64,000 nucleotides of DNA from NCBI GenBank assembly GCA_022703585.1, contig JAKLDJ010000001.1, positions 182,891 to 246,890 of the forward strand. The letters are read 5' to 3'. Positions 601 to 36,700 of this stretch are shown here, piece by piece. The notes beneath the pieces were generated by a model. That model was not told where the DNA came from and did no database searches. It saw nothing but the letters and a program-made list of their open reading frames with translations. The position numbers and the translations under genes are program-made. How positions within the stretch are numbered: position 1 is the first letter of the stretch; the number at the start of each line of letters is the position of its first letter. The DNA is from Candidatus Omnitrophota bacterium. Its GTDB lineage: Bacteria; Omnitrophota; Gorgyraeia; Zapsychrales; JAKLDJ01.

Positions 601-775
601 GCCAGGTCCGGATATAACCGACAGCAAGACCAGCGCCAAAATCAAAACAGGACGTCTCGCCCGAGAGATGTGCCGCGCTTCGCCGACGGCGCGCGAAGAA
701 AGAGGATTATTGTCCGTCCGGATCATCCCCAAAATGGGCCCGGACCCGATGAGGCCTAAAAGACTAAAGAGGGCC
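1..775. repeat. Direct repeat copy A of an intragenic segmental duplication (partner 10363-11137, about 98-99% nucleotide identity)
   Basis: Positions 1-775 align base for base with 10363-11137 with only a few mismatches (e.g. tactgg vs tgctgg, ataacc vs atgacc). Identity ends at 775/11137. The copy may extend beyond the window start. Confidence 0.9.
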
Positions 776-15700: not shown

Positions 15701-18700
15701 AGGTCTGCGAAGGCGGGGTCGTTTTTATATTTTTCTGATTTACCGATATCATTCAATAACCCGATATGAATAGACAAGTTGCCAAATTCCTGATAGGCAT
15801 CAAAGAATAAGCCGGTCAAAAATGAAAACGCCTCTCGAGACAAAGGCGTTCTTCCCAGCTCCTCAAACTTGGCGCTATCCTGAAAATCTTCTATCGACAT
15901 GCGTGCCAAGGCTTCGATTTTATGAAGTTTTTTCATAATATGCTCATGGGATGTCGTATCGTAGTCCGGACTCTTGACGACAGTGTGGAAGGCGCGAATT
16001 TCTTCAAATGCCTCTTCCAATTGATTCGCCGGAATAATCGCGAGCGGACCGGCGATTTTATTAATGAGGGGCTGAACCTGGGCAATGGTCAGGCTAAACG
16101 CCGCCATGAGTTTGTGCAATTCTTCTGAAATTGTCGTATGATTGATCAACGGCGCGTCGGTGCCCAAGGCAATATGGATACCGTGCTGGTAAAACCGGTA
16201 GAACGGGTGTTCGAAGATGTCTTTGACAGCGCCTGTCTGGAGATTGCTTGAGGTATTGATTTCGATAATAATACCTTCGTCGGCAATCTTTTTGAGAAGC
16301 CGATTCTGCCGGGTTTTAAGTGCCTCAATCCTGCTTCTGTCGTAGACCTCGCCGTGGCCGTCCAGACTACCGAAAAGTTTCTCAGGGTCCATGCCGGCCG
16401 CGATGCCATGGCCGATCCTGTTAACCTTTAAAATCTTAATGGAATCTTCCATGCTCTTAAGCCCTTCCTCAAGGCTGTCAAAGGATTCGCCGGCGTGGGA
16501 AGTCCGAACCCTAAAGAGCTTCGATGAGCGCACCATCTGATAGGCCTTCTTGAATTTGCGAAGGTCACAGCCTTTTTCCGCTCCGGCGGTATCGATTCCC
16601 ACAAGATGGCTTTTTAAATCAACAGGCACAGACGGGTCATTTTTGATGCGGATAAGTTCTCCCGCGATTTTCTCAGGAATGCCTGCCTCAACGTGCTTTT
16701 CTATGATAACCACCATGCCGTATTTAAATTCCGGGTACTGCCCGGCCACTTTCTTCAACCCCTGATAACAAAGAGTTATTTTCTTTAATACGGAAGACTC
16801 TTCCGACGCATTAACAGGGACGGAAAAACGGAGTTCTAAATACCGAACCCCGTCCGCATAAGCATCTTCGGCAATTTCTCCGGCAACCCGGGTGATATCT
16901 TCATCCGAACGAATCAGCCTTCTTGCGATATCATATCTCCATCGGTATTCGTCCAGCGTGCCGGTTAAATCCGGCCTTCCCTGGCCCGCAATTATCCTGC
17001 CAAGCGCTGCTTCGTTTCCTTCTCTAATGATGGTTTCGAGACTAACGCCGTATTTTTCGTTGATGTCACTCCACGATATCTCGGATTCGTACTTTCTCGC
17101 TAACTCAATCAGCGTAGAAATCCGGGTAGGTACCAAATGAATATGGAAATCCGCGGTTTGAAATGTTCGTTGGATGACCGACCGCACGGTATCCCGGCGG
17201 CTATCGCTGCTTTTCGTCATCCCCGCTAAAAACAAAAAGCTCATCCCCGCCAACGGCATCATGAGGCAGCATTCCAGGCTTTCCTGGCGCGTACCTTCTT
17301 CAATAAATTCTTTAGAAGTGCTTATGCGAAACACCTCCGCATACCACGGCCCCGGATTCGGCAGATACCCCAGCTGTTTTAATATCCTGCCGGTCTTCCG
17401 GTTCCTATCCCGGGCGCGTTGCCAGAATTCACGCGGGTCAAAACTCGGAAATTCCGGCGGGTGAAGCTGCGACCGATGCGCCCGGATACTTTTTATCTTG
17501 CGACGCATGAGATCCCTGCTAAAAGGAACAACAATCAAACCTTTTTCCTGGGCGTCATGAAGCGGCCATTCTTCGTATGCGCCCCGGTAACCCCACATCC
17601 GGATACCATCGGCCGCATCCTCATGACGTAATGCCCGACGGAGAACCTCCGCGCCGAGGCCATGCGCCCCATGCGGGTCCCGTTCGGCGGAATAAAAGAT
17701 ATTCTGCGGTTTAAATTCTTTTAGAACCCTTCGCACCGCGGCCACATCCCCTTGCTCATCAATTGCTTTAATATGGACAAAGCCCCGGTGGTAATAATAA
17801 GGAAGGTCAAGAAAGACGGTATTTCCGACGCCCAGCATGCCGGCCGCGGCACGCGCCTCCGCCTTCCGGACTTCAATCCGTGCCCTGCGCCACAAATCAT
17901 TGATGTCTTTTTCGGACAAAGGATAGCTGCGGCTTAAGGAATCGGCACAAAATTGTTCAAAAAGACGTCTCGTCTCCGGGTCAGTCATCCGAACCGCGTT
18001 CTCTCCCGATGTCATATAAATAACGGTAACATCATTGCCCCGGACCGAAAGCTGCGCAACTGTAGCCGCCATGGTAATAACATCGTCGTCGGGATGCGGA
18101 GAGAATATAACAATGCGTTCACCCCGGGGCAAGAGGTCATGACCAATGCATGAAATCACCGGCCGCAAGAATTCCATAGCCCGTTTCTGTACCGCCCGCA
18201 TGCCGCCGACGCCCTCGATATAATCGGTAGAAAAACCGATATCCTCCATATCCTTAAGGGTCAATTTCTGCACCGTAAGCCCCGGCTGTCGGCGCAATAT
18301 TTCAATTGCCGCCTGAAGCGAACGCGGACGCGTCCATTGTAATCCGAGACCGGCTATTTGCCACGGTGTTCTCCTGTGAGGCAGCTTGCTGGCAGCGTCT
18401 TCGTCTAAAAGCCAACGGACATTCGAATGGTATTTTGTGAAGGTAACAGGAAAATCACCCGTGGGATCATTATCGTAAAGTCTCTTGATAACAGGCGATT
18501 TTTCTTCGCCGTCGGCCAAAATAATAATTTCACTGCTCTCAAGGATATTCATAACACCCAGGGTGATAGCCCGAGACGGCACCGACGCGCTCCAGCTGCC
18601 GCCCATCCGCCTAAGATTATAGAAACGGAATGCGGTATCAAGCCTGGTCTTGGGCGAAAGATCCACCGGCCGGGTGCGGTCAGTCACACGCGAGCCCGAT

Positions 18701-21700
18701 TCATTAAACCCCATATGGCCTCCCAACAGGATCGTACGGCCCCTGGCGTCTTTTAAAAATTCAAATGTTGCAGAGTCCCTGACCGGAAAAGCACCGCCGA
18801 TGCCAATTATCGCCAAATCGGCTTTGCCGCGCCCGGCTTGGGCAATGGCTGCTTGCAGCTGCTGCTCGTAGGCGTCGGCGACCGTTTGCGCGTCACTATA
18901 TTCAAAAACCGGGGGCAGATAGCGGTTGCTCTGTTTGGGGGCCCGCGACGGGTCAATCCGGTCAAGCCGTCGATAAAATACCTCATCCATATAAAACGCG
19001 TAGCTTAAAGGATGCCCCCGCTCAAGGCCGAGGTATTCATCGAGGTTGAAAAAGACAACGCGGGAAAAATCGATCGTGCGGTCTTCTTTGTACCGGCGCA
19101 CCAAGGCGGCCCACATCGGTAAGGGTGTCGCTCCCGTCGGAACGATAATGACCGCATCGGGAATCATTTTAACCAACCTGATCACGCGCTCGGCTGCCGC
19201 TTCGCCCAGCAAGGCACTGTTGGCAAAAATATTAATTGAGGTAGGACTATACAGCGGCCGGCGTATATCCTCCGTCATCCCCGTCATAAAGACAACAGGC
19301 AGGCCCGCCGAAGACAAAAACACCACGCCCGGCAGAAAACAACCCAGGCTGTCATCTATATCATTCCGCGGCGCGGACGCGCGCGCCTTTTGGGCGAGCC
19401 GGTGTTTCACTTCACCAAAAATTTCCCCTTCATTCCACTGAAAAGTAAATTGATTAAACAGCATGTCGATGGAAAGCTCATCAGCCCCCGTGCGCATAAT
19501 AGCCGCTATCATCTGCTCAACCGAAATCTTCTGGGCGATACCCTCGCGCACAATCTTGCGAATATGCTTTGCCGTCTCCCAATCGTTATGGAAAAGTGCT
19601 ATCGCCGCTATAATCCTCCGGTGCGCCCGCCGGTATTTTGGCAGCCGAAACACCCGCGCAATCGCACTGAATCGCCCATAATATTTCAGGCAATAGGCAA
19701 GCCACACATCGCCGGGGACAAGATGTTCTTCGTCAAAATCGACTCTGCCATAAATATCCCGCTGGCGTCTTACATGATGAATATTCGCGCATGCGACAAT
19801 GGCTTCTACAATTCCAATATATGTCCCACCCTGTGAATTTCCATGTACGATTTTGCGCACTGATGAGGCAATGACCCGTTTGGCATAGGCAATATCATCC
19901 AGGGTTAAATACTGCGAGTGTTGAGAATCTTCCAATGGCGAAATCACGAGGTTCCATCGGTCGTCATCAATCGTAGTGGTTGTCTGCGCGTCAATATCCT
20001 CGGGGAAATATTCCAGAGCCGGAATTTCTTTCCACCAATGACCAAATACATCCTCATCGGGAATATCATCCCAGCGCTCCAGGCTCACGCGCACGCCTAT
20101 AGCGGTATAAAACCGTACAATGATGTCGTATAAGTCAGCCCATTTTGTAAGAGGATACGCCTCGCGAGGAAACTGCTGCCGGTATTCTCGTAAGAGATAC
20201 TCGATAAATTTCCTCTCCAGCGCCGCGTAATCAATAACACCCTGCTCGTTTCGAAGCACCGAACCTGAAACCTCAAAGCATGTAATACCATAGTGATGAA
20301 AAACATAAAAAGAACCGTTAAGATGCGAAGCCGTAGCAACGTCATTAAAGCCGGGAAGAATGACAGGCCAAAGCCTGTCCGTCGCCAGAGGGTGATGATG
20401 ACTATGGATATCAGAACCTTCAGCATCTTTGGCCTCAACCCAAACCGTCATCTGCGTTTCTTCCGGTGTCCTCCCCCGGACTAGACGCCAACGCCCGCTC
20501 TCGGAAGAACGATATAGCGCAACCTCAAAACCCAGGCCGGTTAAAGCCTTGAGCATCCCTTTGGTCGGCTTGGCAATATCAAAAATATCACCCGGCTGAG
20601 CATCGACGATCGTCTGTATATCCACATCCCCCGTCATTCCCGTCACAAATAGGGCGCCCAGGCCCGCCAGCCCCGTTAGAAATGTTGAGGGCAATAAGAA
20701 AGTTGTTAAGATTTCTACCGGGGCCAACGCCAGCATTAAAAGGCTTTCGAGACCGAAGCCGGGTAACAGAGCTCTAATAGCCTCCGGGGCTGAACCCCCA
20801 TTTTCCCTGTCCGTCTCTATCTTCTGGCTTAACGCCTTCTTGCACGGATTCGAAATCCATGTATTGGCCTCCGCTGCCCCCTGGCGAATAGCCCTGACAG
20901 TTTTTTCTGAATAAGATGGCACATTAAAATGTAATAACGCCCGTGCGGCCATGCAACGCACGTACTCGTTGGGGTCGTTTAAAAGAAGATCCGCGAGACA
21001 CTCTTCAACTTCTCGCGATTGAATGCCCAATTTCCAAAGAAAGGCTACAAAATTCGACCGATACTGGGTAAACCCAAATTGATCAATCAGCGTATATCCT
21101 GACGCCCTCATTAAAACCTCGCACCCCTCCTGTATTTCTAAATCTGCGATTCTCTGGCCAGCGTCAAGCGCCGCAGTCAAAATGTCGCGATTTGCTTCGT
21201 CATTCTTTTCGACCAAAGTAAGTCCTTCATGTATCAAAAATAGTTTTTCGACCGCCTTAATTAAAGTAACGGATTCAGAAAATTGTCCTGAGTCAGAGCT
21301 TACCATCTCATCGGGGCTTGAAGCCGGCGTTTCGCTAGCCGGGCCGGGCGAAGAATATTTCGCCTTTAAATAGCTCACAGCCATGGCACAGGCTAGGCTA
21401 ATATCACTGATAGGCGTGTCTTCGGCGGGATTATGGCTGATGCCGTTTATGCTGCGGACAAAAAGCATAACAGCCCTGACGCCTTTTTTGGCAAAATATG
21501 CGGTATCGTGACTGGCACCACTGTGAAGATTAAGGAAGGGAATATTTTTTTCGCGGGCGACTCGCCGGAAATCATCCTGCAGATCTTGGTCCAATTCAAC
21601 CGGTTTTCCCGGCGGCCCATGCTCGGTAATCGGATACAAAAGCGTTTCTTTTAAGAGCTGCACTAATGTATCGCGAACTCCTATGTTGTACCCACGAATA

Positions 21701-24700
21701 TCAATGCTCACTTCCAACTGACGGCCATCACGGAAGATTTTTCCCACGGTTGCGACCGGGCGGTTTTGAGAATCTTCCTGCGCCTCGGCGGCCTGTCGCG
21801 CTCTTTCTTCAACCGCGCGGACAATCTCCAGGGCCTGCAGGTAGGAATCAGAGGCCATATCAAAAATTCCCTGCGAAGGCTTGCTGACTTTCAGAATTGT
21901 GGTGGTATTTCTTCGCGCCGCGACAGAGCGCAATACCTCTTCGGCCCGGACGCGTTCCTGCGGCATAATATACAGAGCCATAGTCACTTTACCGGGAATA
22001 GTATTCATCGAGCCGTTCTCGATTTCGATACCGGCGACGAGATCCCTTCTTTTAAGGATATCTCTCAGCATGACCGCCAACTCCGTGGCAGTGGCCAAGG
22101 CATCTTTTCGACCATCCATCGGCGTCGCCCCGGAATGATCCTGCTGGCCCTGGATTTCAATAAGCTGCAGATCCTTATCATTAACGCGGCGCTCATCCGT
22201 GATGTCGGCCACATATTTAAAGCGATGGGCGGCGGCAATACCCTTGACGATACCGACGGGGCAGCCGGCCTTTTCCAATACCGGGCCCTGCTCGGGATGT
22301 ATTTCCAAAACGAATTCGATATTTCTTAAGTTGTCTCTATCCTGCTCCGCTGCCAGCGGATCAAGCCCGCGGCCTCGCATGGCCTCAAGTATTTCCTGCT
22401 TGGTGCGTATAGGCCTTCCTTGAGCGTCAGATTCTTTAAGCGCGGACCACTGGAATGCGCCGGTAGCAAAACCGCTTCCGATCATGGCAATATCAAAACG
22501 GGTCGATTCTTCGCAGCGATAGGCGACAACCTCGAGAGGATTGGTTAATCGCACGCCGGATTCTTTTAGCTGTCTGACGATTTCAAGCCCGGAAACAACC
22601 CCGGTTATCCCGTCAAATTTCCCTGCGCCTTTAACGCTGTCCAAATGGCTGACGATACGAATAACCTTGGCGCCGGGATTAAGCCCTTCAAGCCGTCCAT
22701 AGAGATTGCCGGCCGCGTCCGTCCGGACGGTTAGGCCGAGAGAGAGCATTTGTTTTCTTACATAGTCGTGGGATTCATCTTCCAGGGAAGAATACCCCAG
22801 CCGTGTTCTTCCTTTTTCCGGGTTGTCACGGGAGGCGCCGATGGCTCCGATGGCTTCAATGTGCCGGGCAATTTCCTCCTGCGCTTCTTTCTCGCCTTTG
22901 ATCATTCCTAAAGGCCCGGCCTCGCTGAGGCCTGCGAAGGCCGAGGCGGGCAGGAACATCAGCGGGCCAAAGAACATAAAGGCTCTTAGCTTATCGGAAT
23001 CATCCGCGTCAAACGGATTATCAACTCCCAAGCGCTTGGAAAACCTTCTGATAAAATCATCAAAGTCATGCGGTTCGGCGCCCAGCATGTCCCGTCCTAT
23101 GGACCGGCCTTCTATATTTTCTTTTAAATCCGCGAAGACACCGACAAGAGCGCAGATAACGCTGAATTCTTGCGGAGTGTATTCCATCTCCGCAATAGTA
23201 AACCTAATCGAACCTTCAAGGTATGCTAATACCCGGCCGTTATGGACAGGAATTTCTGGCTTAGACTGCGATTTGTCGGCAAGGTCTTTAAGAATATGGC
23301 GATGGTCGTACGCGTCAATTGCCATGACAATGCTTGTATCGGGCATTTCATAGGCAACCCATTTTAAGGCAACTATATTGCCGAATCCCTGCTGCTCGAG
23401 TTCATATCCTGAAGTTATCCCATGGGGTATGCGCTCGGCATCATATATCCTGACCTCCGGCAATCTCCTTCCTGCGTCGTGGCTCCGGGGAAATCTGCGC
23501 AGGCTTCCCTGCTGCTCAAGCGCCTGCAATGCCTTAAGCACTGCCTCGGAGCCCATAGAATCAAACAATTCCTTGGCAAATATCTGCCCGGCGTGGCTGC
23601 CCTCATCAAACCCCACACAGAAACTTCCCGCGCCGATAAGCATTTCTCTATCGGCATGCGAACCCTCGTCACCAAACACCGCAATCTCATCAATCGAAAG
23701 GTTATGTTTATCGGCAAAATCAAAAAGCGCAAGCGCCTTGTGCCGCGCTGTCTCATAGCCATCAATCTGCTCAACCAGGGATGCGTCATCCACAAACCGT
23801 TCCAAGTATTTTTTATACCCTCCTGTCCCGCCGCCGGTAATAAGCGCGACCGGATATCCGCAAGCCAGCAGTTTTCCGATAAAACGCGCGAGCTTCTCTT
23901 TTGTTTCTTCTGTCTTTCCATCAAATGAGATGTCCAGCGTCCCGCCGATGTCAAAGGCAAAGCCCCTGACCCCGCGCCATTTAAAGATATTCCATTTTTG
24001 CCGGTTACTTAATCCCTCAAACCGTTTGGCATCCCTGGCTAAAACAGTTTCTATGACATCGCGTATCATGGATTCTGCCTGGCGGTCTCTTTCTTGCGAA
24101 AGCTGTTGTAAACGTACCATCGCCTGCGCGTCAATTCTCCCGCCGGGTTGAATAATATTCAGCAGATACTGCGAAAATGCCTCATTAACCCATTTCTTTA
24201 TTTGCTGATAGGAAATATAATGGTTCCGGGCGATCTCAATCGCGTTAACCGGTTTACCGTCACGAACAATGGCGTGAGTTTCCTCCTCGAGATCCCTGAT
24301 TCGGATATACGAGCCGTCGTTAAACCGTGAAATAAGCCTTTGCAGAACGTGAATTGCAAATGAAGGAACAGCAGGAATAAAACGCAGGGCAAGATAGCTT
24401 GTTAAGTGCAGCGGCGCAAACGGGGCATAGAGCCCTAAATACCACAGCCGGCCAATAATCTGGCCCGAAAGGTAGCATTCCCGCAAGAATTCGGGATAGA
24501 AAACATTCAATGAACCGCGGCGCGAAGTTAATATTTCATTGCTCCACTTAAAAATAAGAATTTGACGGATCATCAAGTACTTCCGCAGCGTCGGGTTAGC
24601 ATTAGCGGGAAGCGCGATTTTTAAATCAAAATAGTCGTTTTCATCAACAATAAAGCTTGTTTTTATATCGTCAACGGGATTAAATCCTTTGGCATAATGC

Positions 24701-27700
24701 ATGATCGCCCAATACAAAACCCAATCCAGTTTCTTTGCGGCTTCGTCCTCTAAATCCTTAAGCATCGCCTCTGCTGTTTTTTGTTCCTTATTTGGATTTG
24801 GCCTCCTCAGCAGAACAAGCGCCCCCAACGCATTTAAAATAACGCCTCCCGCCAAAATAAACATACCTATTTCAAGCGGCGACAGGGCGCGCAACGTATC
24901 TTCTTGATCCGTAGACACTTTATGATTTTCAGGAATCATCAGCTGGCGCATCATTTCACGCATTTGCGCATCTTCTTCTTCCCTTTCGTAGTTTCTCTTC
25001 GGGCGCGCGTTAATCCAGGACAGGTCGCGGCGCATATCCGCAGTAATCCGCATTTTTTCTTTGCCTATTCTCTCCCAGACATTATCCGCTATTTGATACC
25101 GCTTCTGCCCCGTAGGCGGCAGGCACTCATATTTCTTGCGGGAATCCCTCATCCTTCGCCACTCTTTTTCAAAGCCACGGCCGGCAAAACGCTCGTGTAA
25201 ATACCGAGCCATGGCCTCACGGGCCCAGAGGTGAGCGCCAGGGGAAAACGTATCTTGATTGTGCCCGGATAACTCAATAAAATTCGATAAGCCTCCCGTT
25301 CCCTTATAGCCGTACAATCCTGCCTCGGCCAGGTCCCAATAAAGGACATCACTTCGCTCATCAACCTTAAGCTTGCGCAGATATTTCTCGGCCAGGCCAA
25401 AAGCAATGCCCTGATACAACCCAAATAACATCCAGCGGATATTATTGCGGACGCGCGCGCTACGCGTGGTTTTAAGCAGTTTAAAGAGAAGGCCCGATTC
25501 ATATTCGAATTTTGGATAGGATAACAGCGTAAATCCGTGCACGCTAACGGTTTTGCGCGCACGCAACATTTTTTCCATCACATTTTGGTAGGCAAAATTC
25601 ATAATGCGCGCCTGGCTTTGCCGCTGCATCGGCAAAAACATCGTAAAGACAGAACCGGCCTTTCCGTCTGATGCCACCTTAATTCTGCTATGCATGCAAT
25701 ACATAATATGCGAAATGAAATCCAACGTAAGCGTACTGCCAGAAACCCTTTCGTTCCTGACCGCATGGCGGACCATAGAAAATAATCCTTGTTGATTTTC
25801 TTTTGGAATACCCTTGCCTGTATCTTTGACCTTGACGATAGCGCCGTCAATCAACCTCGCGTACCCAAACAGATTTGCTGTTCCTCTTCTCACGACAATG
25901 CGCACAAGGCCCTTCTCAGTATGTTTAACGGCATTAGCAATAAGTGTACGGACGGTGGCGCGCAGCAACTGCTCTTCACAGTCATCAACAACTAATCTCC
26001 TTTGGTCACTGTCAATCTCAAAATCAAGGCCCTTGGCCTCGGCAGCCGCACGCAGCTTCTCGGCCTCATCCTTGACGATTGGCACAATGTCCAGCGTCCT
26101 AAAATCAATACCGATTTCCATCGTATTAATATACGTATTGGCTTCGTTAGCAATGATTTCGTACCTGCTGAGGCTTTTTAGCCATCGCACGATTTGCTCC
26201 TGACGCTCCTTTTCCTCCGTGCCAAGATAGTCAAGAAGGCTCCCTATCTGCCGTGCTATACCGGCAACATCAAAGATGTCTATGCCACCGTTATGGCGCA
26301 AAACCAACATAAAAGTATCAAGGCTTTTATACCCATGTTGACGCATATAACGCCGGACAACACCCCAGGGGGCACTGCCGTCGGCCACCATCTCTCCCAA
26401 CATGCAACGCAGATGCTTCCTATCTCTGGCAGTAACCCGACCAAAACGTTGTCGAAACTCTTTTGACCGGCCGATATAAATATTAATAAGCCCGTCATAA
26501 TTTCTACGCCAAAACTTGTGATCCGTACTCCCCACAACCATGGATGCTATGCCTAATTGGTACAGATGTGCCCGAGCCTCGACTCGTTTATCCGATGTGA
26601 CGTTAGCCCTGTCATTCTTTTCATTCCTTGTAAACTCCGGGCCGATTTCGCGGCCCCGTACCACAAATTCTTTAAGCTGCCACTCACTTAACCCGCCGCT
26701 ATACCAGAATTGATAATTCCAATTGACCGAGAAGCTGACAACAACCTTGTCCACTTTAAATTCTCGCTTGATACGCTCGATCACCGGATCGACGAGCTTT
26801 CTGGGCGTCGGCTCGCTAAACCCAAGAATAGCGGCAAGCCCCGCGACCTTAAAGTGTGCCTCTTCAATGACCGTGCATGTCTGCCGGATAGCCGGCCATG
26901 CCTTTTCTTTAAATGCCGGCAAACCTTCATTTTTCAATACTTCGGAGCCATACGCGCACGCCTCACGAAACGGGCGCTGGGCGTCGCGGAATTCAACCAT
27001 GCCTTCATAAAGGATCCGACGTGTTTCCTGCAAATTAAGCCTGCGCGGCGCTCGATCGGAGGAATCATCGTCACGGTCAACAGCGTCTTTGATCACCCCC
27101 AAAAGAAACAGCGAGAAAACAGGAAAAACAAAACACCCCAGCGTATCTTCGCGGCCGGCGCCGATTTCACGCATGACCTGTTCATAATACGCAGTGACTT
27201 TCTGGGCTTGAATGTCAGTTTCTAGGATACGATCAAGCATGGTTAAAGCAGCCAATTCAAACCCATGGTCCCGGTCATGAAATAACCGGCGGTATCGTTC
27301 TTCATCACGTTCTCTTAGGCTATCAAACGCTCGTCCAAAGACCTTACCCTGAGCAATGAGTGTTTGATGCCGCTCGACTGCTTTTTGCCCTTGCTGGCGG
27401 ACAGTTTCCATGAATATTTGAAGCGGGCGACCATGCCCTCGGGAGACAAACCATAAAAACCACAGTTTCACGTCAAGCATGGACATAAATCGGTTCTGCA
27501 GCGATGCATCGTCATTGTAATCTTCATGCTGGTTCAGCCGGATTTTATCGAGGAGGATTTCGATTTTCCGTGGATCAGCCGGGGCGTGCAGATATCCAAG
27601 AAAGAATCGGGCATACTCTTCGAATTGCTTTTGTTCCCCTTCCGGTGTGCGGACAATATAGACGTCCGCGAATGCCTTCATCCATGTTTTTACTTTCTTT

Positions 27701-30700
27701 TCTGCGTCAGAAATTCTCCGCAAAATCGCAAAATAAACGGCATTATGCAGACCATGCAGAATAAACGGCACAACAAAAACCCCTGTCTTCCAGTAGGCAT
27801 AGCCCCAGAGAATCCCCATCCCGATCCTGAAGATGCTGAACCGGTTATCGCTGTGAATCAAGGCAAACGCCACGCTGCTAACCAAAAGAGCGATGGATGT
27901 CGATACAGGCATACCCGCGACGATTGAGATCAGACCGCAATAATTCAAAAGCGCCTGGAGACCCATAAATAAGCCGGCCCGGAATATTAATTCTTCGACC
28001 AGCGGTATCTCAATCGCGATGGTGGTATAGGTTTTTAAAGGTTCCCCATAAATAATAGGGTGCCGGCTATCACGTCTTGAGGAATCTTTTAAATACCGCT
28101 TGGCAGACAGAACAAAGAAGAAGAATACCGGAGCACACAACAGGGCAACCATTTTAAGAGTGTAGAGCAGCGCCGGGATTATTTCCCGCCGGTCATGATA
28201 GGTCAACGCCAGGGCGATCGCCGCCGGGATAATATTGGCGACCAAAATTCCTGCCCAGCGCCAAAGCTTGTCGTCTTTCTCCTTTTGCCCATTAGTCTCT
28301 TCCTGCACCATCCCCACCAGCCCCGTTAGAAATGTTGAGGGCAATAAGAAAGTTGTTAAAATTTCTAACGGGGCCAGCGGCACAAACAAAAGCGGCCACA
28401 GAGCGAAGGGCGTAAGACAGCCGAGATTACCTTCTCGTGGCGACGCGTCGTCGCGGTATTTCACCTTTTCGATAACGATCATCATATTGCTGTCGGGAAG
28501 TGCGACCTCGCGTCCTTCTGAATCAAGGAGCCTGGCTTTGCCTTTTAAGTTGTCAATATACCCTTGCTGCAAATACGATTCTTCGTCTTTAGCTAACGGC
28601 AGAGATCTAACCACCATGCCTTCTTCTTGGGCAATCGCGGTGATCAAATCAATGTAACCCTGACGGGTCAAAACACCGTATTGCTCGCGCACTTCATAGG
28701 GTAAGCTGCTTGGGTCAAATTCGGGACGATAGGCCCAAGTCAATGTAAAGAGAAACTCCATCGCGTCTTTCCGTAACATGCGAATACGCCATATCTCCTG
28801 AGCGGTATCTTCAGAAACTATTTCATAGGCATCCGATAAATTCCGGCCTTGGAAATTATTCACAAAGAAATCAAAGACTTCCTTATTTTGCCTGCCTGTC
28901 AACTCAAGGATTTGCATTGCCTCGCCATCAGGCGGAATGGCGCCGTCGCGGATAAGAAGCCTGCCGCCAACGCCTAAAACCTGCAAGGCTGCCCTAAAAA
29001 GATCTCTGATCGATTCGATATTAAAACGCCGGCCGTCTTTTTCGGTATAGCTGTAGACTTCATGCAAGAGCGCGCAAAGAACAACCGTGTGGGCCATTGT
29101 TTCTCCGGCAGAGGCTAAGGCCGCTTTTAAATCGTTGGCGTTGGCTTTGATAACTCTCGCGGAGAGATTCTTTGCTTTTATTTTATGATCAAGTGCCTGC
29201 ACAGCCTCCTCGGAAACTTCAACGGCCAAGATCCTCTCAATGCCGTTGACCTGCTTAAATATTTCGGCGATCTCAAGCGTTGTGCCTTCACCGGGCCCGA
29301 TATCCACCCAGACGGGCCCACGGCCGTGCCTAAGAAGTCTGGCCTTGTCGCTTCGGGCAGCGGCCATTCCTTTTAAATAAAGCGCCTCATTGCTGACGCG
29401 GTCAAAGTTATCTTTACGGATGCCGTAGGCATCAAGAAGCATCTTAAGAACCTCGTGGAAGCGCAATGAATTGCTCACCTCATAGATATGAAGAAGTTCC
29501 AGCAAGTGGTTTGCTTCTTCGCTAAACCTGAAATCAAACGATATCGACTCCACGCCGGGGATGCCCAGATCGGCCGTTCCCAAAACAGGCTTTTCGCCGT
29601 CATGATGATCCGTCTTGTCAAATACTGAGACCGTCTCAGAATTAACGATCAGTTCTTCAAGGTCAACCCTGTCAAGCAATGCCTCCAGAATGCGAACCTT
29701 ATACGGGTCAAACTGATGCCGACCGCAAGAAAGCTGGCGCATAAGATCAAAGAAGCTGATATGAAACGGCCTTGTCATATCAATACCTTTTCTTTGGGCA
29801 AAGGCAAACGCCAAGGCAAGCACTTTAATTTGAGGCTCTGCCCTTAAATCGAATGTCGCACTTTCAACGTACCAGCCCTGGAAGTGCCTTAAGTCTTCGA
29901 TGAGAATCCGAATCGCCTCCGACGAAAGATTGTCAATCACGCGCTCTAATTCTTCTTTCGGCTCGCCTAACTCTCTTCTTTCCTGACGGAAGCGTCCCAG
30001 CCGGTCTTTTAGATACGCCCGCCGGGATTCTTCGGTTGCAAAGTTATCCCAACGCGCACGATAAACATCATCCCAGGAAACAGGGAATGTTTCGCCTTCG
30101 GGCGTAATAACACGGCAGAAATTATTAAAGAATCCGCGCATCTCCTCATTAAGCCGCGAGGTAAATAATCCTTCGCGAATACTCGATACATCCAAAACAT
30201 TTAACAGGTAAACAATATCGCCGACTCTTCGTGCAGCCAAGAGGGCATCATCCTGAGCGCCAACAGCCTCGGCAAGCTCTCCAAAATGCTCACGGATCCA
30301 ACCCGTGAAGTCTTCAAAAACATCGTAGGAGACTTCCCCTCTGACCCACTGCCCGGCAAAACCTCGGGTTTCGATAACGCGATAGAAGAATTCATTTAAT
30401 ACCATTCGGTGCGGATACGCCCTTAAAAGTTCAATATTCTCAAAAAGGCCTCTGTGCCAGCTTAAGGATGCCATATTACGCAAAATGAGCGCCGCTGCCT
30501 TATTAGGCAGACGAAAATCAATGCCCTCAATCTGCGCCCACTCTCGAAGCAACTCCGGCAGCGCACTTTTAGCCACATCATGATAGAGAAAAGCAATGCG
30601 TATGTAGGAAAGGATATCAAGTTTCTCGAGGGTGGCCACCACGTCCGCAAGATACTCAAATTCTCTGTTGGAGATACCCGGCTCGTCCTGAAAGAGTTTT

Positions 30701-33700
30701 AGATCTCCTCTTTCCAACCCCAGCAGTTTTCGAGCAAAGCCCCGTTCAAGGATATGCTTAACTAGAGATCTATTTCTTCGCGGCTGAACCGGCACCGGCG
30801 TGGCATCAAAGTTCATCGAGCCGGGCGCCTGGAACAAATATCCGTGAATCTCCGGAAAAAGCCGTTGTATCTCATTTTCTGCGGCAGTCTCGCGCGCACC
30901 CAAAAGTGGTTGGAATTCATTTACTAATGCTTGTGTATCGGTATAAATCCTTTGTTCGATGCGGTCTTTGTGGACAACAACAGCGGTCTTGATCGCCCCG
31001 GGTTTGGGACGGATCCGGTAGACTTGAAGGGTATGCCAATACGGCTCTTCGTCGACCCGTGCGTCAGCCTTGAACCTTAAGCCGCCTTCTTGAATCAACC
31101 AGTCTTTCCATTCCTGCGTAACCGACCCTATTTTTAGCGGCACCTCGAACGGCTCGCCTAATTTCTCGACGATAAGCCGGTCCCCGAATTCTTCAAGATA
31201 CCTTTCGAAATCTTTCTTCCCCAAACTGCTAACGTTCATAACAATACAGGCATCCGGATTATGCGGATTAAGATGGTCGACGCCGATTTCCAGTACCTCG
31301 CGGATAAAACCTGTTCCCCGATAAGGGTCTTTTTCATCCGTTTTCATGAAAGGCGGCAAGCTAATATAAGGCGGATTGATGATCATAATATCATACGCTA
31401 TATCAAGGCCCCGTATCCCTTTGCCCCAATAGGAATGAAGCTTAATAGAATTCCTGGGGCCCCGGTATGCCTTAACCGCCAGCACGGACGCTCTTAGGGC
31501 ATAAATACTGATATCGCTAAATCCGACGTGTTTGACGCCCGGGAATCTTGACAATATCGTCGCAGTAACCTTTCCGCCGCCGACTCCTCCTTCAAAGATG
31601 GATTTAATACTCGCCTTGTGCAGAATACCGGCTTCATCCATGCGCTTGATCAACAAAACCGTATCAATATTGGTCGTCCACACATCCCTGTCGATGCTCA
31701 AATCCCAGGAAACAATGACTCCCCGATAATGGGTATAGCGTCTGTTTTGTTTTAATAAGGCATTGAGCGCTTCTCTTGTTTCACCGGCAAGATGATGGTC
31801 AATAAATCTTTGCGGAGTAATAAGCCGGCAGTTGGGGATAGTGGCGACGGGCTTGTCTTCTAAAACCACGGCCTCATAATCGACGCTGCCGTCCTCTCTA
31901 AATACCTTTGAATCATCCAGAACACGGTAATAACTTATATCAAAATCACCTCTCTCATTATCCTGAATATCGATAAACAAAGATAACGGGTTGGTGCGAT
32001 CGGCAGGCAAAACAATCGATAGTTCCTGCGTCGGCCCTTCGGCAACAGCAACTTTCTTATTTTCATTCTGAACAACATTCGGGACAGTCAATAACTCGAT
32101 TACTTTAGAAAAATCGTTCCAGCCGCGCAAAAGATAATCGGCTCCGTTTTGGATCAATACGCTGCGGTTATACTCAAATTCTTTGCCTTCGCCTTGCGGC
32201 AGGCCAAAGGCAATACCGCCTAATTCATTAACAACGCTTAGCCCCCCAATCCAGTCATTGAAATAAACAAAGGTATGGTACGGGAATTGTATCTTGAGCT
32301 CCCGATAAACCTTTTCGCGCGAGATAGACGTATCAAGATTTTCCTCGGCATCTTTTTTGCCGACAACATGATTAACGGAGATATATTTGGTAAACCCGCG
32401 CCGGCGCAGTTGTTTGACGGCAAGCGCCGTCGGACTGCCGGTTATAACGACCATGGGAATATTGCGTTCGAAAAGCTCTTTAACAAATTCTAAGGCACCA
32501 GGCATGGCCTCGGGGACATTCTGGCGCAGCATATTGCGCTGATGCTCAAGCTCCCAGACGACTTCCTTTTCCGGCCTGCCGCAAATCTCGGCGATACGCC
32601 GGATGATCTCTTTTTCGTCGACATGGACCGCGTTGGCCTCAACCCAGGCAAGGCCGTCAGAATTACCGGTCAAACTATTGTAGGTGTAGGCATATTCGTG
32701 TTTCCATGTCGGCATAAAAAGCGTGCCGTGCATGTCAAGAACAGCCATAACAGGCCTATCCTGCGGAATGATTTTTTGTTTATCGGGATGGATGATTTCT
32801 ATATCCGTCCCGGGGATAAATCGCCTTACAGACAAGTCTTCTCTTTTGTCCACGCCATCGTTGTTGACGGCTCCTGCCAGCGACATAAACATCAAGGGTC
32901 CCAGGGCGAAAGGCAACACGAGACAGCCAATCGCTACAGCATCATCCTTAACTAAAACTCCTTTAAAGCCGTTGGAGAAATAGCGCACCTTTTGTTTACT
33001 GACCTTAAATACAAATGTCTCGACCGTGCCGTCTTTTTTCCGAGCCTGGATAGAGTGTTCTTGCCATTCCAACGAAGGAACGCTGCCTTCCATAATTCCG
33101 GGGATAGAGGCAACCGTCACACCCTCTTCTCTTAACTGGATACGAAGATGGGAAATCCTGGTAACTCTCCAGGAATCGATACGGACAGGCACCGCATTGC
33201 TAAAGTCGCTCGGGCAACGGGTGGCGATCAAGGCATCGTCAAAGGTTAATCCGACATGTTCCAAGATTTTGTGAATATACAAGTCGGTTTCGTCCAGAGA
33301 TCTGGCATTGATCTCTCCGATGATGTACCCGGCAAAACCGCCCCCGGCGGTTTTGCCGAGCGACACCGGCACCTTCACGATAATATCTTCCGGGGCGAAC
33401 TCGGGAAGCCTTTCGATATCGGGCGCATTTTCACCCGTAATAGGCCTTGCCTGGACGATAAAAAGGTCTTCGCCCTTAAAGGCAAACTCCACATCCACCG
33501 GAAATCCTAATGCATCCTCTAATCCCATGACAACATCCCGGAGCCTCTTGATTTCTCCCTGAGTCAAAGGAGAATCTTTCATTCGGCCGTCACGAGTTTC
33601 TACGGACGCTTTCCGGGAATGCCATAAGTCCTTAACAAAGCTTTCCATATCAGCGCGTTCCTGGCCGGAAGAAAGGCTAAGCTGTATCCCGTCCCATACG

Positions 33701-36700
33701 GCACCTTTAGGCTCGCCGGAGAATCCGTAATAAACCTCCAGGATATCACCGGTTGTGGCGTCAAGATCGATGATGGTGCTATAGTTACCGGCGACGGCCA
33801 TCATGCCTTCTCCGATCACGGTTTCGATGGTGGTGTATCCGGCCAGATGTGAAAAGGCAACTCCTGATTTTTCCGCGAAGATGTAATCCTGCAGGAAGGG
33901 ATGACGGTTACGCCTTGCTTCCATCTGAGCAACTCGACTCCCGAGTTTTGGTTCCGGACCAAATTCATGATCCATAGCCAAATCGGCCAAATCCTTGAAG
34001 CGATCCGTGAGCGAACTTACGAACCTGCCGGCATAACTTTTCTCAAAACTGTCTTCGCCAGGCTCAGAAGAACGCCATATGCGGCTTTGGGAAAGCCCGG
34101 ATACTTTCTTGAGCCAGCGGCCCTTTTCTTGCGCCGACAGCATCCTTAAAAATAAGAATTGGTCTATCAGCCAATCAAAATGATATCTGGAATCATGCCA
34201 CATGCGTTCATACAGCGACGGGGATATGTTGCCATTATATTTTAATAACCGAGTGATAAAAGGCGCGTTTCTTAAATCCAGGAATAACTCAGTCCACTCG
34301 TCTTCGGGGGCGTATTCAATAAACGGTTTAAACACGCTTTCAAAGAGCTGTCGAATCCTCTGCCTAAAATCATTTTCATCGGAGGCGTTTAAGTAAAGCT
34401 GCCTTAAGTAAAAAGAGCGACTGAATTTTCGGCTCTCTTCATCCGCCGGCAGAGCGGCTGCATCGCCTTGCGTATAAAGCCTCACCTCAATCGAGCCCCC
34501 TTCAGATGCCACGCGGATATACGGGCCCGGAATCTTGAAGATAGCTTCTTCAATCTTAACCTTGGCATATATGACACCGCTATGCGCATAGCGGTAGGCC
34601 AGGTCTTTAAGGTATTCGTTTTCAAAAATAACATAGGGAGGAATTTTAAAGCCCAGTTGCCGTGCCAGGCCCAGCTCATCCAAAATTATCAGCCAGGCCG
34701 CCTTGCCGCCATGCACCGGCATCAATTCCTGGAATCTTTCCCGAGACGATTTGCGATTGCTCTGGAGGACCCCCAACAGCGGCAGGATGAAGAAAAACAT
34801 ATCCGGAATAATAAAGGCGTGAAGTTTTGTCGCCGTCAACTCAAAGCAATCCACCATCCCTTCCCGAAGAATGCTGTTTTGAAGCAGCCACTTTAGAGCC
34901 TCAACACCGGTCAGCCGCCATGTGCGCGGATCCTGGAAAGAAATCCGGAACTGCCCGAAGCCGGCCTGGCCCCGTAAATACCCCATCAATGTCCCGGCAA
35001 TAACCTCTTCAAGGGATACTTCACCGGTTCCGCTGACCTTTTCAACAACACGATAATGATCGCTGCGCCGGTGCACGTTTCCGTCGATATCGCTCACGTA
35101 ATAATCCTGATATAATGTTTTCCTCGTTTTCAGATTGGCAATCTGCCTGAACGACTTAAGTGTGATACCGACAGGCAACACGTCTTTTAAAATCCTGTAG
35201 AACTGAAGACCCAGCCTTTGGCCGGAGAGATGAATCACGACATTCGGGCTAAAGGAAACATAATCCAGATTAATAACGATCGATAATACGTCCCCTGTGC
35301 CGTCTTTCCCGGGGGACTTGATCAGTTTCACAATCGGCTTGGCGGATACCAAATGGTCGCTTTCTCTTTCCAGGAACACTTCAACGGCATCCGGCTTATA
35401 ATCCGGTATGTGTGCCCTCAAGCTGTAGCATGAATGATCTTTCGCCGTCATTTCTTTTCCGCTCAGCGCGCGCGCGATATCGGAGAGCACAATCATGGGG
35501 AGGCTATGAGAGCAATCGCCCTGCCGCAGTCCGGCGGGGTCAGGGGCCAATGCGCCCTCATTGATTCCTTCGGGGCGCATTGGCCCCACAGCGTTTTCCT
35601 CAAAAAGCGGATTTAAAACGACAAAAAGCGTCGTGGTTACCGTTTCGCCTTCCCTTAAATACTCAAGATGCACTTGGGTTTTTTCCATCAGTCGACCCAA
35701 GCCCTGCATGCCACAGCCTTTATTACGATAATCACTTCCCCACCTTCTCCGGCCGCCTGTATCTGCCAGGTAAACAAGGCCCTGCCTAAGGCCTCGTTGG
35801 TTTTTCTGGAGCATGCCCCAGCATTCTTTGCTGGCCAATCCATTTTGTCGGAGTATAACCTGTAAAATATATTCCATCGCCCCGCTTTCCGTTGTTCTTA
35901 AATAAATCCCCATCGCGCGATATCCAATAACACCACCCCGGCTGTGATATCCGGCATTATCTTCCAGCCCTGAAATCGCATACACCAGAGGACTCTTATT
36001 CACGGTTCTTCCGATTTCGCCCTCAAGAATTTGAATAATATCGTAATCCCGATAAATACCGTTGATGGCCAGTTCTTTCGGCCCAAAAACTCTTTCTCCT
36101 GACCCGCGCGCCTCTATTCCGCCTTCCATATTGGTAAAAACAATTCGTTCGCTGTCATCAAAAACCATGCCGGCAATCGCCGCCAGGGGAGCCAACGTTA
36201 AGAAAACAAGGCAGGAAACATCTTCACCGTCATTTGAATCGCGCTTCAGGGACGTATCCAAAAGATCAACATGAGCAGCCGGCTCACCGATAGCTTTGGT
36301 CGCCCGTTCAATCTCCTTAAGGCAAACGCCTTGGAATAAGGTTACACAATCGGCAACAAATTCCTGCACGGCCGTCTTCCACCGGTCAAGCTCGCCTTGC
36401 CCAAGACGCGCAGCCTCCAGCAGGGAGAAAAGCTCTCTTTCGACAGCATAAGCTTCTTGAGCCTGCCCTGTTGCTCTTAAAGCAGTCATCATCCTTGATG
36501 CTATGAAAATGCTATCGCAAAGATTTCTTTTGCGTGCCTTGACGTTAATCTCTTTTTGGGAAACATACCCTATTTCCCTATGCGCCGACTGTGCCGCCTC
36601 TCGGATTTGTTCAACAGTAAAGAAGCTCATGTCCGCAACAAAACACTTAAATTCTTCTTTATCCGTCGTAAGCTGCCAAGCTACGGCATCGGCAATAACT

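Follow-up and report, generated by a model that had tools for sequence, protein, structure and literature searches.

Recurring junction modules and an embedded, predicted CPBP-type protease in a giant open reading frame of a Candidatus Omnitrophota bacterium

Does a giant bacterial gene act through one enormous chain, or is its product cut into separate proteins, and if so, where and by what? The question is raised by a 64,000-nucleotide (nt) stretch of a Candidatus Omnitrophota genome (contig JAKLDJ010000001.1 of assembly GCA_022703585.1; this whole stretch is referred to as the window, and its coordinates are used throughout), in which a single open reading frame (ORF) carries, among many enzyme domains, a predicted intramembrane protease of the CPBP family. 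Published papers leave open whether such a giant product acts as one chain or is cut up, and the cleavage points and protease-recognition motifs of giant bacterial proteins are stated to be unknown (10.1101/2023.11.21.568195; PMC11573180). A first-pass annotation of this sequence had proposed a polyprotein processed by its own CPBP domain. We find a chain of enzyme units punctuated by a recurring junction module, with an intact CPBP domain embedded in it; this architecture is firmly established and, to judge from the literature that could be searched, has not been described before.

The frame running from 63999 to 1 on the minus strand comprises 21,333 codons without a single stop and is open at both ends of the window, while each of the remaining frames contains 588 to 1439 stops. 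Residue i, counted from 0, has its top base at position 63999 - 3i. The GC skew of the plus strand is negative throughout the window, as expected for one long minus-strand gene. A recoded genetic code was ruled out, as all three stop codons are absent from the frame, and a plus-strand ORF of 171 amino acids (aa) at 26710-27225, antisense to the giant frame, was treated as a chance occurrence.

1-63999, minus strand: single ORF of 21,333 codons, part of a larger giant gene (stop counts per frame)

All Pfam domains of this ORF lie between copies of a short hydrophobic module, and none spans one. They comprise two SecA DEAD/PPXD/P-loop sets, many helix-turn-helix (HTH) domains, sigma-70 regions r2, r3 and r4, PPDK_N, HAD, several class I methyltransferases, the CPBP domain, HATPase_c, M20/M28 peptidases, a glucosamine-6-phosphate isomerase-like (NagB) domain together with PIG-L, adenosine deaminase, a PrmA-like methyltransferase and MutS domain V. 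Self-comparison of the protein revealed paralogous blocks that end at modules and occur in shuffled order (residues 486-995 with 7294-7796, 1408-1873 with 6766-7251, and 1928-2613 with 4971-5686). The position of the domains between modules and the ends of the paralogous blocks at modules indicate that the ORF is a head-to-tail concatenation of protein-sized cassettes, stringing together at least 28 units with a recurring junction module.

We defined the modules, m01 to m28, by combining a seed hidden Markov model (HMM) with an inspection of every hydrophobic segment. The seed HMM recovered 18 modules carrying a Cys and none in five shuffles, and the pattern L[GSAE]C[FLIC] has 15 matches where 1.06 would be expected. 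The median spacing of the modules is 541 aa.

63556-63594, minus strand: m01, ALCSFFPVIGMAK (module inspection)
60892-61017, minus strand: m02, Ala replaces Cys (hydrophobic-segment inspection)
59737-59793, minus strand: m03, LACFMLPLMLLPVLGMAVN (seed HMM)
58237-58320, minus strand: m04, DFCGFILAWPGIW... (hydrophobic-segment inspection)
52048-52152, minus strand: m05, Gly replaces Cys (hydrophobic-segment inspection)
49606-49671, minus strand: m06, LGAFLPG..., Ala replaces Cys (hydrophobic-segment inspection)
44563-44628, minus strand: m07, LGCFILPFMAGMSAVFLVGMMD (seed HMM)
43681-43812, minus strand: m08, LRCFVPLADLF... (hydrophobic-segment inspection)
42145-42204, minus strand: m09, LECIAFFFPALLFGLAGTIS (seed HMM)
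40546-40581, minus strand: m10, LGCFFVPWVIPE, core truncated to 8 aa (seed HMM)
37720-37788, minus strand: m11, VSCFVFPLLGLPILPLLSLGAVD (seed HMM)
36160-36219, minus strand: m12, VSCLVFLTLAPLAAIAGMVF (seed HMM)
34762-34824, minus strand: m13, LHAFIIP..., Ala replaces Cys (hydrophobic-segment inspection)
32863-32931, minus strand: m14, IGCLVLPFALGPLMFMSLAGAVN (seed HMM)
28303-28425, minus strand: m15, LGCLTPFALWPLLFVPLAPLEILTTFLLPSTFLTGLVGMVQ, directly N-terminal of the CPBP (seed HMM)
27088-27141, minus strand: m16, LGCFVFPVFSLFLLGVIK, closes the CPBP unit (seed HMM)
22897-22989, minus strand: m17, LRAFMFFGPLMF..., Ala replaces Cys (hydrophobic-segment inspection)
20626-20778, minus strand: m18, Ala replaces Cys, hairpin element at 20671-20723 (hydrophobic-segment inspection)
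19270-19347, minus strand: m19, LGCFLPGVVFLSSAGLPVVFMTGMTE (seed HMM)
17212-17277, minus strand: m20, LECCLMMPLAGMSFLFLAGMTK (seed HMM)
14653-14787, minus strand: m21, LSCFILPLPLLEILTTF..., hairpin element at 14710-14762 (seed HMM)
13495-13563, minus strand: m22, LGCFMLPLTLPGLPFLPLVGMVR (seed HMM)
12427-12489, minus strand: m23, LGCFIPGLIFLPVLMAGIAPR (seed HMM)
11080-11172, minus strand: m24, LACFIPGLLPASALFNLLGLVGAGPILGMIR (seed HMM)
9877-9999, minus strand: m25, LRALMFLSPLAF..., Ala replaces Cys (hydrophobic-segment inspection)
6193-6288, minus strand: m26, LGCFVSLFLPLAGLPAPLFLAGPAVFIAGMVR (seed HMM)
5221-5367, minus strand: m27, LGCLAFFSLPLAPLETLTTF..., hairpin element at 5281-5333 (seed HMM)
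718-843, minus strand: m28, LGCFVPASLGAESLL...GPILGMIR (seed HMM)

The consensus of the 28 modules reads [E/D]-x-L-G-C-F-hydrophobic-P...G-M-V-acidic. Taking the Cys as position 0, [E/D] occupies position -4 and Pro position +3 or +4; Leu is found at -2 in 21 modules, Gly at -1 in 12, and Phe or Leu at +1 in 22. After the hydrophobic core comes another conserved end, in which acidic residues follow G-M-[V/T/I]. The codons used for Leu, Gly and Cys in the L-G-C-F head differ among the copies, which indicates that the head motif is selected at the protein level. In an observation of its own, m24 and m28 fall within a recent internal duplication (~10363-11211 and 1-894), whose copies share 89% identity over ~298 aa.

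The cores themselves are 8-45 aa long, with a median of ~17-19 aa and 13 of the 28 at or below 17 aa. They contain 11% Pro and 9.7% Gly, compared to 4.3% and 7.1% in the whole protein; the helices of the CPBP domain contain 4% Pro. Helix-breaking residues are typical of intramembrane-protease substrates, and cores this short poorly suit stable membrane-spanning helices. Furthermore, the short modules m07 and m14 lie between units with ATP-, S-adenosylmethionine- or cytoplasmic-type enzyme domains identified by Pfam, which suggests that at least some modules do not cross the membrane as a single span; hairpins or half-spans at its cytoplasmic face suit them better.

The CPBP domain sits in a unit of its own, bounded by m15 and m16 and arranged as follows.

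27088-28425, minus strand: CPBP unit, consisting of m15, a 13-aa polar linker, six hydrophobic helices, the soluble domain X and m16 (Pfam, hydropathy)
27721-28257, minus strand: CPBP membrane domain of six hydrophobic helices, residues 11914-12092 (Pfam, hydropathy)
27979-27996, minus strand: motif 1, EELIFR (EExxxR, catalytic Glu pair; alignment)
27853-27867, minus strand: motif 2, FALIH (FxxxH; alignment)
27742-27756, minus strand: motif 3, HGLHN (HxxxN; alignment)
27142-27717, minus strand: domain X, soluble (homology to the database proteins P0001 and P0024)

As the first-pass annotation had stated, the domain is intact. It matches the Rce1-like Pfam family PF02517 with 49.9 bits (E = 4e-13, cutoff 22.4; 46 bits in a separate scan), and hydropathy places the three motifs in helices 3, 4 and 6 of the six-helix domain. 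When it was aligned with 25 ordinary CPBP proteins, no columns other than E, E, R, F, H and H were invariant, with N near-invariant, and the window CPBP carries every one of these residues. Based on its HMM score, its catalytic motifs and its multi-pass membrane domain, it is a member of the CPBP/Rce1-like family and a predicted protease. The CPBP profile found exactly one such domain in the 21,333 aa, where Pfam detected no other intramembrane protease. Its scores against the NCBIfam subfamilies lie below their cutoffs (Mrt_core, 16.3 against 100; MrtC, 15.4 against 195; MrtJ, 34.1 against 75; MroQ, 38.1 against 270), which places it among the CPBP proteins but outside the curated myxosortase families. 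A single-sequence AlphaFold2 model of m15 and the CPBP, predicted with no alignment, was too poor to be used (mean predicted local distance difference test score 49.8), and a profile search of Protein Data Bank sequences with the CPBP did not reach Rce1.

The orientation of the domain in the membrane was derived from its basic stretches, one in the loop that leads into the EExxxR helix (AKRYLKDSSRRDSRH) and one in the tail after the last helix (RRISDAEKKVK). By the positive-inside rule, both would place the N-terminal linker and domain X in the cytoplasm and the catalytic residues near the cytoplasmic leaflet, so that the active site probably faces this side. The motif NLGCLTPF (28405-28428) precedes the CPBP N-terminus, in agreement with the first-pass annotation. 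The second motif, EDTLGCFVFP, had been placed upstream of the domain; since the gene is on the minus strand, it actually lies downstream, at 27121-27150, 428 aa (1,284 nt) further along the chain, where it closes the unit.

Relatives of this gene were few, and none of them was close. An exhaustive HMMER search of 1.84 billion representatives yielded 36 hits, of which three were relevant (P0001, P0002 and P0024). Homologous-protein searches that started from the CPBP unit or from domain X returned nothing; with a SecA unit as the start, all the proteins retrieved were ordinary SecA sequences of 830-930 aa. A genome scan found nothing with the CPBP unit and one locus with the SecA alignment (L001, in a metagenome-assembled genome, 33% identity); a metagenome scan found nothing with the long-module alignment and one locus with the CPBP alignment (L002). 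Scans of viral contigs revealed no related sequence. P0001 and P0024 contain homologues of domain X, at 39% and 31% identity, respectively; in both proteins the domain comes straight after a punctuation mark, with no CPBP.

The best match to the CPBP region, P0002 (2,740 aa), is a fragment of a giant ORF whose metagenome counterpart is L002 (contig Ga0268280_1000297, plus strand, 39.8% GC), a single open frame of 6,766 aa with a PF02517 match of 52.5 bits. L002 is punctuated by [S/A]-A-S-P-L (ASPL; 17 occurrences against 0.42 expected), a polar mark with neither Cys nor hydrophobic stretch; one of its copies lies just before the CPBP helices and another just after them. ASPL is nearly always encoded by GCC TCG CCG CT(G/T), even though TCG makes up 13% of the Ser codons and GCC 21% of the Ala codons of L002, and it always occurs in a single frame and never on the opposite strand; its conservation in L002 is at the nucleotide level. 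The ORF of L001 (contig CAYSSX010000005.1, 2198-20728, plus strand; 6,177 aa, with SecA-like, APH, GNAT and methyltransferase domains) carries the mark R[S/A]ELR (RSELR) 12 times against 0.04 expected, in varied codons and always between Pfam domains, and Pfam finds no protease domain in it. P0024 (5,942 aa, without any Cys) carries [S/A]-G-F-G-[A/V]-acidic (GFG) nine times against 1.2 expected, a mark that looks like the window module without its hydrophobic core. Lineage-specific punctuation therefore appears general among the few giant ORFs retrieved, and boundary marks that differ between lineages in this way are the pattern expected of polyprotein cleavage sites.

What, then, do the modules do? 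We propose that they dip into the cytoplasmic leaflet, where they would hold cytoplasmic-type enzyme units at the membrane, and that they would also be the points at which the chain is processed into separate proteins. Because its active site apparently lies near the cytoplasmic leaflet, the embedded CPBP would be the leading candidate cutter, probably recognising the helix-breaking hydrophobic module rather than following a strict CAAX logic built on a lipidated Cys. This is the best explanation overall, which we hold tentatively and rate somewhat short of probable. Taken by itself, cleavage at the modules by any protease appears evenly poised, mainly in view of the conservation of the junction motifs here and in the relatives, the helix-breaking cores, and a Sec-type signal-peptide-like segment (ISRARRPVLILALVLLSVISGPGTIPQTAEA) situated ~25 aa past m24 (10939-11031) and m28 (577-669). 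Such a segment normally works at a free N-terminus and would make sense if the chain were cleaved at the modules. Cleavage by the embedded CPBP in particular is unlikely by our estimate, and a strictly Cys-lipid-dependent, CAAX-like cleavage very unlikely.

The hydrophobic nature of the modules, with their cores of 8-45 aa, is also consistent with a chain that is never cut. The modules would then be membrane staples, permanent anchors in the form of hairpins or half-spans for one huge multi-enzyme protein, with the CPBP as a passenger whose substrate would differ, such as prey or self peptides, or which would have an immunity-type role, one known from other CPBP proteins of bacteria. Published giant Omnitrophota proteins are described as membrane-associated, with about one predicted transmembrane helix per ~1,000 aa (10.1101/2023.11.21.568195; 10.64898/2026.06.07.730766; PMC10066038); in addition, the Cys is dispensable, and the CPBP of L002, self-contained between two polar ASPL marks, behaves there as a passenger. 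Pure anchors, however, need no conserved ends, whereas [E/D]xLGCF and GM[VTI]-acidic are both kept at the protein level in spite of varied codons, and the equally regular RSELR, ASPL and GFG marks of the relatives are polar and cannot anchor. Many cores are moreover too short and too rich in Pro for stable helices, and acidic flanks on both sides are unusual for transmembrane segments. Weighing both sides, we consider permanent anchoring doubtful.

If the chain is a polyprotein, the cut at the modules might also be made by another enzyme: signal peptidase I (after the small residue of ..x-G|M-V), a site-2 protease, a rhomboid protease, or a C39 or S8 protease encoded in the gene outside the window. 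C39 and S8 domains have been reported as frequent in giant proteins of this kind and proposed as the cleaving enzymes (10.1101/2023.11.21.568195), and the gene extends past the window. The hydrophobic-x-G-M-V end of the module resembles the c-region of a signal peptide, and cores of 12-17 aa have the length of an h-region; L001 and P0024, furthermore, are punctuated without a CPBP. On the other hand, Pfam finds no C39, S8, rhomboid or site-2 protease in the 21,333 aa, which besides the CPBP contain only M20/M28 peptidases, and the region corresponding to the n-region is acidic, not basic. We rate this alternative as improbable.

Some modules also share sequence at the DNA level, the most prominent case being a palindromic element within m15.

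28321-28373, minus strand: 53-nt palindromic element in m15 (13-bp perfect arms, 27-nt loop)

The element consists of CCCCGTTAGAAAT, 27 nt and ATTTCTAACGGGG, is read in frame and encodes PLEILTTFLLPSTFLTGL. Four copies occur in the window against none expected, all on the minus strand (28321-28373 in m15, 20671-20723 in m18, 14710-14762 in m21 and 5281-5333 in m27). The copies differ from that of m15 by at most 2 nt and their flanks diverge; two substitutions in the 14710 copy retain pairing as G-U. The corresponding RNA is predicted to fold into a hairpin of -32.9 kcal/mol (z = -4.8) with a stem of ~20 base pairs (bp) when flanking bases are included. At gathering thresholds Rfam matched nothing in the window, and searches of viral contigs did not recover the element. 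It may represent a miniature repeat that keeps the frame, a signal at which RNA is paused or processed, or the outcome of gene conversion; GCCTCGCCGCT in the L002 lineage may, like these hairpins, be a candidate RNA processing or pause site. Two shorter stretches are shared as well. One of 45 nt, encoding ASALFNLLGLVGAGP, is identical in m24 (~11095-11139) and m25 (~9910-9954), whose units are otherwise unrelated, and near-identical in m28 (~733-777); the other, of 26 nt and encoding AGPAVFIAG, is common to m08 and m26. The module interiors thus look like mosaics of short DNA repeats.

These repeats raise the possibility that the modules exist mainly at the DNA level, as recombination junctions or in-frame repeat elements that drive or record the shuffling of cassettes, and that the protein tolerates as neutral hydrophobic linkers of no specific function. 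The near-identity of the 53-nt palindrome in four modules with differing flanks, the shared 45-nt and 26-nt stretches, the shuffled unit order between paralogous regions, and the near-uniform codons of ASPL in L002, minor as they are there, all point in this direction. Neutral linkers, however, do not explain a Cys in 21 of 28 modules at one position against a background of 0.7% in the ORF, and the many synonymous codons of the L-G-C-F head and of RSELR in L001 argue for selection on the protein. A mainly DNA-level origin of the modules is accordingly a slight possibility in our judgement.

Returning to membrane-dipping modules as processing points with the embedded CPBP as candidate cutter, a number of observations weigh against this proposal or parts of it. 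The recurring Cys followed by aromatic or aliphatic residues, on which the first-pass annotation had built its case, does occur in all the forms it listed (CFVF, CFML, CFIP, CLTP and CFLP); the Cys itself, however, is present in only 21 of the 28 modules and is replaced by Ala in six and by Gly in one. P0001 (293 aa) likewise contains a window-type module, LSGFFLPIVLFLPVWGMAESKG, with Gly for Cys directly before its domain X homologue. Both flanks of the modules are net acidic, at -1.2 each (mean of -1.25 for the 12 residues after the core). The NCBIfam sorting-signal models matched none of the ten modules scanned (E <= 10), and Pfam found no prenyltransferase in the window. The DNA-identical cassettes imply that part of the similarity between modules is at the nucleotide level. 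As the gene runs beyond the window, further proteases, for instance the C39 or S8 enzymes reported in genes of this type, may be encoded in its remaining part. Finally, the closest embedded CPBP, that of L002/P0002, resides in an ORF with polar ASPL marks, and in L001 and P0024, which are punctuated by RSELR and GFG, a CPBP was not found. In this very small sample the presence of a CPBP does not track Cys-type punctuation; the first-pass annotation had named a missing correlation as refuting, and the comparison tilts against a specific tie between the two.

The idea of a self-processing polyprotein consequently stands in part. The string of units with junction modules, the intact CPBP and the precedent of the myxosortase MrtX speak for it, and its CAAX-like or myxosortase-like logic is weakened by the seven modules and the P0001 module without Cys, the missing prenyltransferase and sorting-signal matches, and the subfamily scores below cutoff. 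A general version, in which giant bacterial genes are true polyproteins whose dozens of whole enzymes are made in one chain and released at lineage-specific punctuation, here at Cys-headed membrane modules cut from the cytoplasmic leaflet by an embedded CPBP, is in our view improbable. In either case, the junction modules and the RSELR, ASPL and GFG marks provide concrete candidate cut sites in giant ORFs, as well as natural unit boundaries for structure prediction and for semi-specific proteomics searches. Should the CPBP not be the processing enzyme, the punctuation would still be a useful and apparently undescribed organising feature of such genes.

Two further units of the ORF are SecA-like, with only 35-37% identity to housekeeping SecA.

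56650-58146, minus strand: SecA-like unit 1 (SecA_DEAD 189.6 bits, PP_bind, P-loop_SecA), beginning ~30 aa past m04 (Pfam)
47446-49020, minus strand: SecA-like unit 2 (SecA_DEAD 186.7 bits), 41-46% identical to unit 1 (Pfam, self-comparison)

SecA unit 1 is followed by a long tandem array of HTH-type repeats (~52579-55689, residues ~2770-3806), which are ~50-59% identical to one another and contain recurring peptides such as LLAQAGPEKLRGLN. Housekeeping-type information-processing domains are embedded beside the metabolic enzymes, namely a sigma-70 r2/r3/r4 unit (~37950-38650) and a MutS domain V unit (~7780-8320), and the two SecA motors are further units of an information-processing type. 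Strong unique hairpins also occur inside coding units, away from the modules, at 35543-35587, 33330-33358 and 45301-45380; they have perfect stems of 13-15 bp (up to ~20 bp), and the minimum free energy of 80-nt windows reaches -47 kcal/mol compared to a mean of -18.8.

Three other accounts of the modules were considered and rejected. Autoprocessing of the Hedgehog or intein type at G|CF would call for a Hint-sized domain after the motif, where only a hydrophobic stretch of 8-45 aa is found. Internal translation starts at the Met of G-M-V are not consistent with a GGG that abuts the ATG, the lack of a spaced Shine-Dalgarno sequence and marks without Met in the relatives. Ribosome skipping of the 2A type at RTDNNPL would apply to just three modules.

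How does this gene compare with known systems? It most closely resembles the giant Omnitrophota "Archaeovorin" genes, for which cleavage by C39 or S8 proteases has been suggested at points called unknown (10.1101/2023.11.21.568195; 10.64898/2026.06.07.730766; PMC10066038). In both cases the ORF is tens of kilobases long and rich in hydrophobic segments, and its divergent SecA DEAD/PPXD domains lack the C-terminal parts of SecA. PPDK-like domains, methyltransferases, peptidases and HEAT-like repeats are also shared, as are large stretches without annotation; the window contributes at least 21,333 aa, 28 modules besides other hydrophobic segments, and two divergent SecA copies. The difference is that those papers mention neither a CPBP/CAAX protease nor a conserved junction motif.

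A second comparison is with the myxosortases (MrtX, MrtC, MrtP, MrtJ, MrtS and MrtA). The CPBP protein MrtX cleaves the C-terminal MYXO-CTERM signal, made up of an invariant-Cys motif, a transmembrane helix and a tail rich in Arg; in E. coli, MrtX suffices for this cleavage (PMC11980579); four Cys signals have cognate CPBP enzymes, while CAAX processing absolutely requires a prenylated Cys (10.1101/2023.06.07.544157). Both systems combine a CPBP glutamic protease with a Cys motif, a hydrophobic segment and a charged cluster. In the window, however, the signals are internal and occur 28 times in the protease's own chain, not all contain the Cys, the charged cluster is acidic instead of rich in Arg, shortness or a high Pro content makes many cores unsuited to a helix, and the scores against the HMMs fall far under the cutoffs. 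With eukaryotic and archaeal Rce1 and their CAAX substrates the window shares the EExxxR, FxxxH and HxxxN motifs and a Cys that precedes aliphatic or aromatic residues. CAAX motifs stand at the extreme C-terminus, with a prenylated Cys as the fourth residue from the end, whereas the window sites are internal and their Cys is not universal; together with the lack of a prenyltransferase by Pfam in the 21,333 aa, this led us to reject a canonical CAAX signal.

In bacterial lipoproteins, which are processed by Lgt and LspA, the signal is N-terminal and has a basic n-region, and the hydrophobic region lies before the L-x-[GAS]-C motif, immediately ahead of which acidic residues are absent. The modules share an L-x-G-C-like tetrapeptide with the lipobox, but their hydrophobic region follows the Cys, the flank ahead of it carries a net acidic charge, and they lie inside the chain; a canonical lipobox was rejected on these grounds.

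Lastly, the polyproteins of flaviviruses and picornaviruses consist of fused proteins with short conserved junction motifs, an embedded protease and membrane-threaded segments. The window shares with them the head-to-tail arrangement, the short junction motifs and a protease within the chain. It differs in that the gene appears non-viral and is at least 64 kb long, that the candidate protease would be an intramembrane glutamic one, and that processing is a proposal. If it is indeed the CPBP that processes the chain, the principle known from myxosortase and Rce1 would reach beyond C-terminal sorting tags to the internal self-processing of a polyprotein, an internal and repeated version of CAAX/MYXO-CTERM processing that would form a cellular counterpart of viral polyprotein expression.

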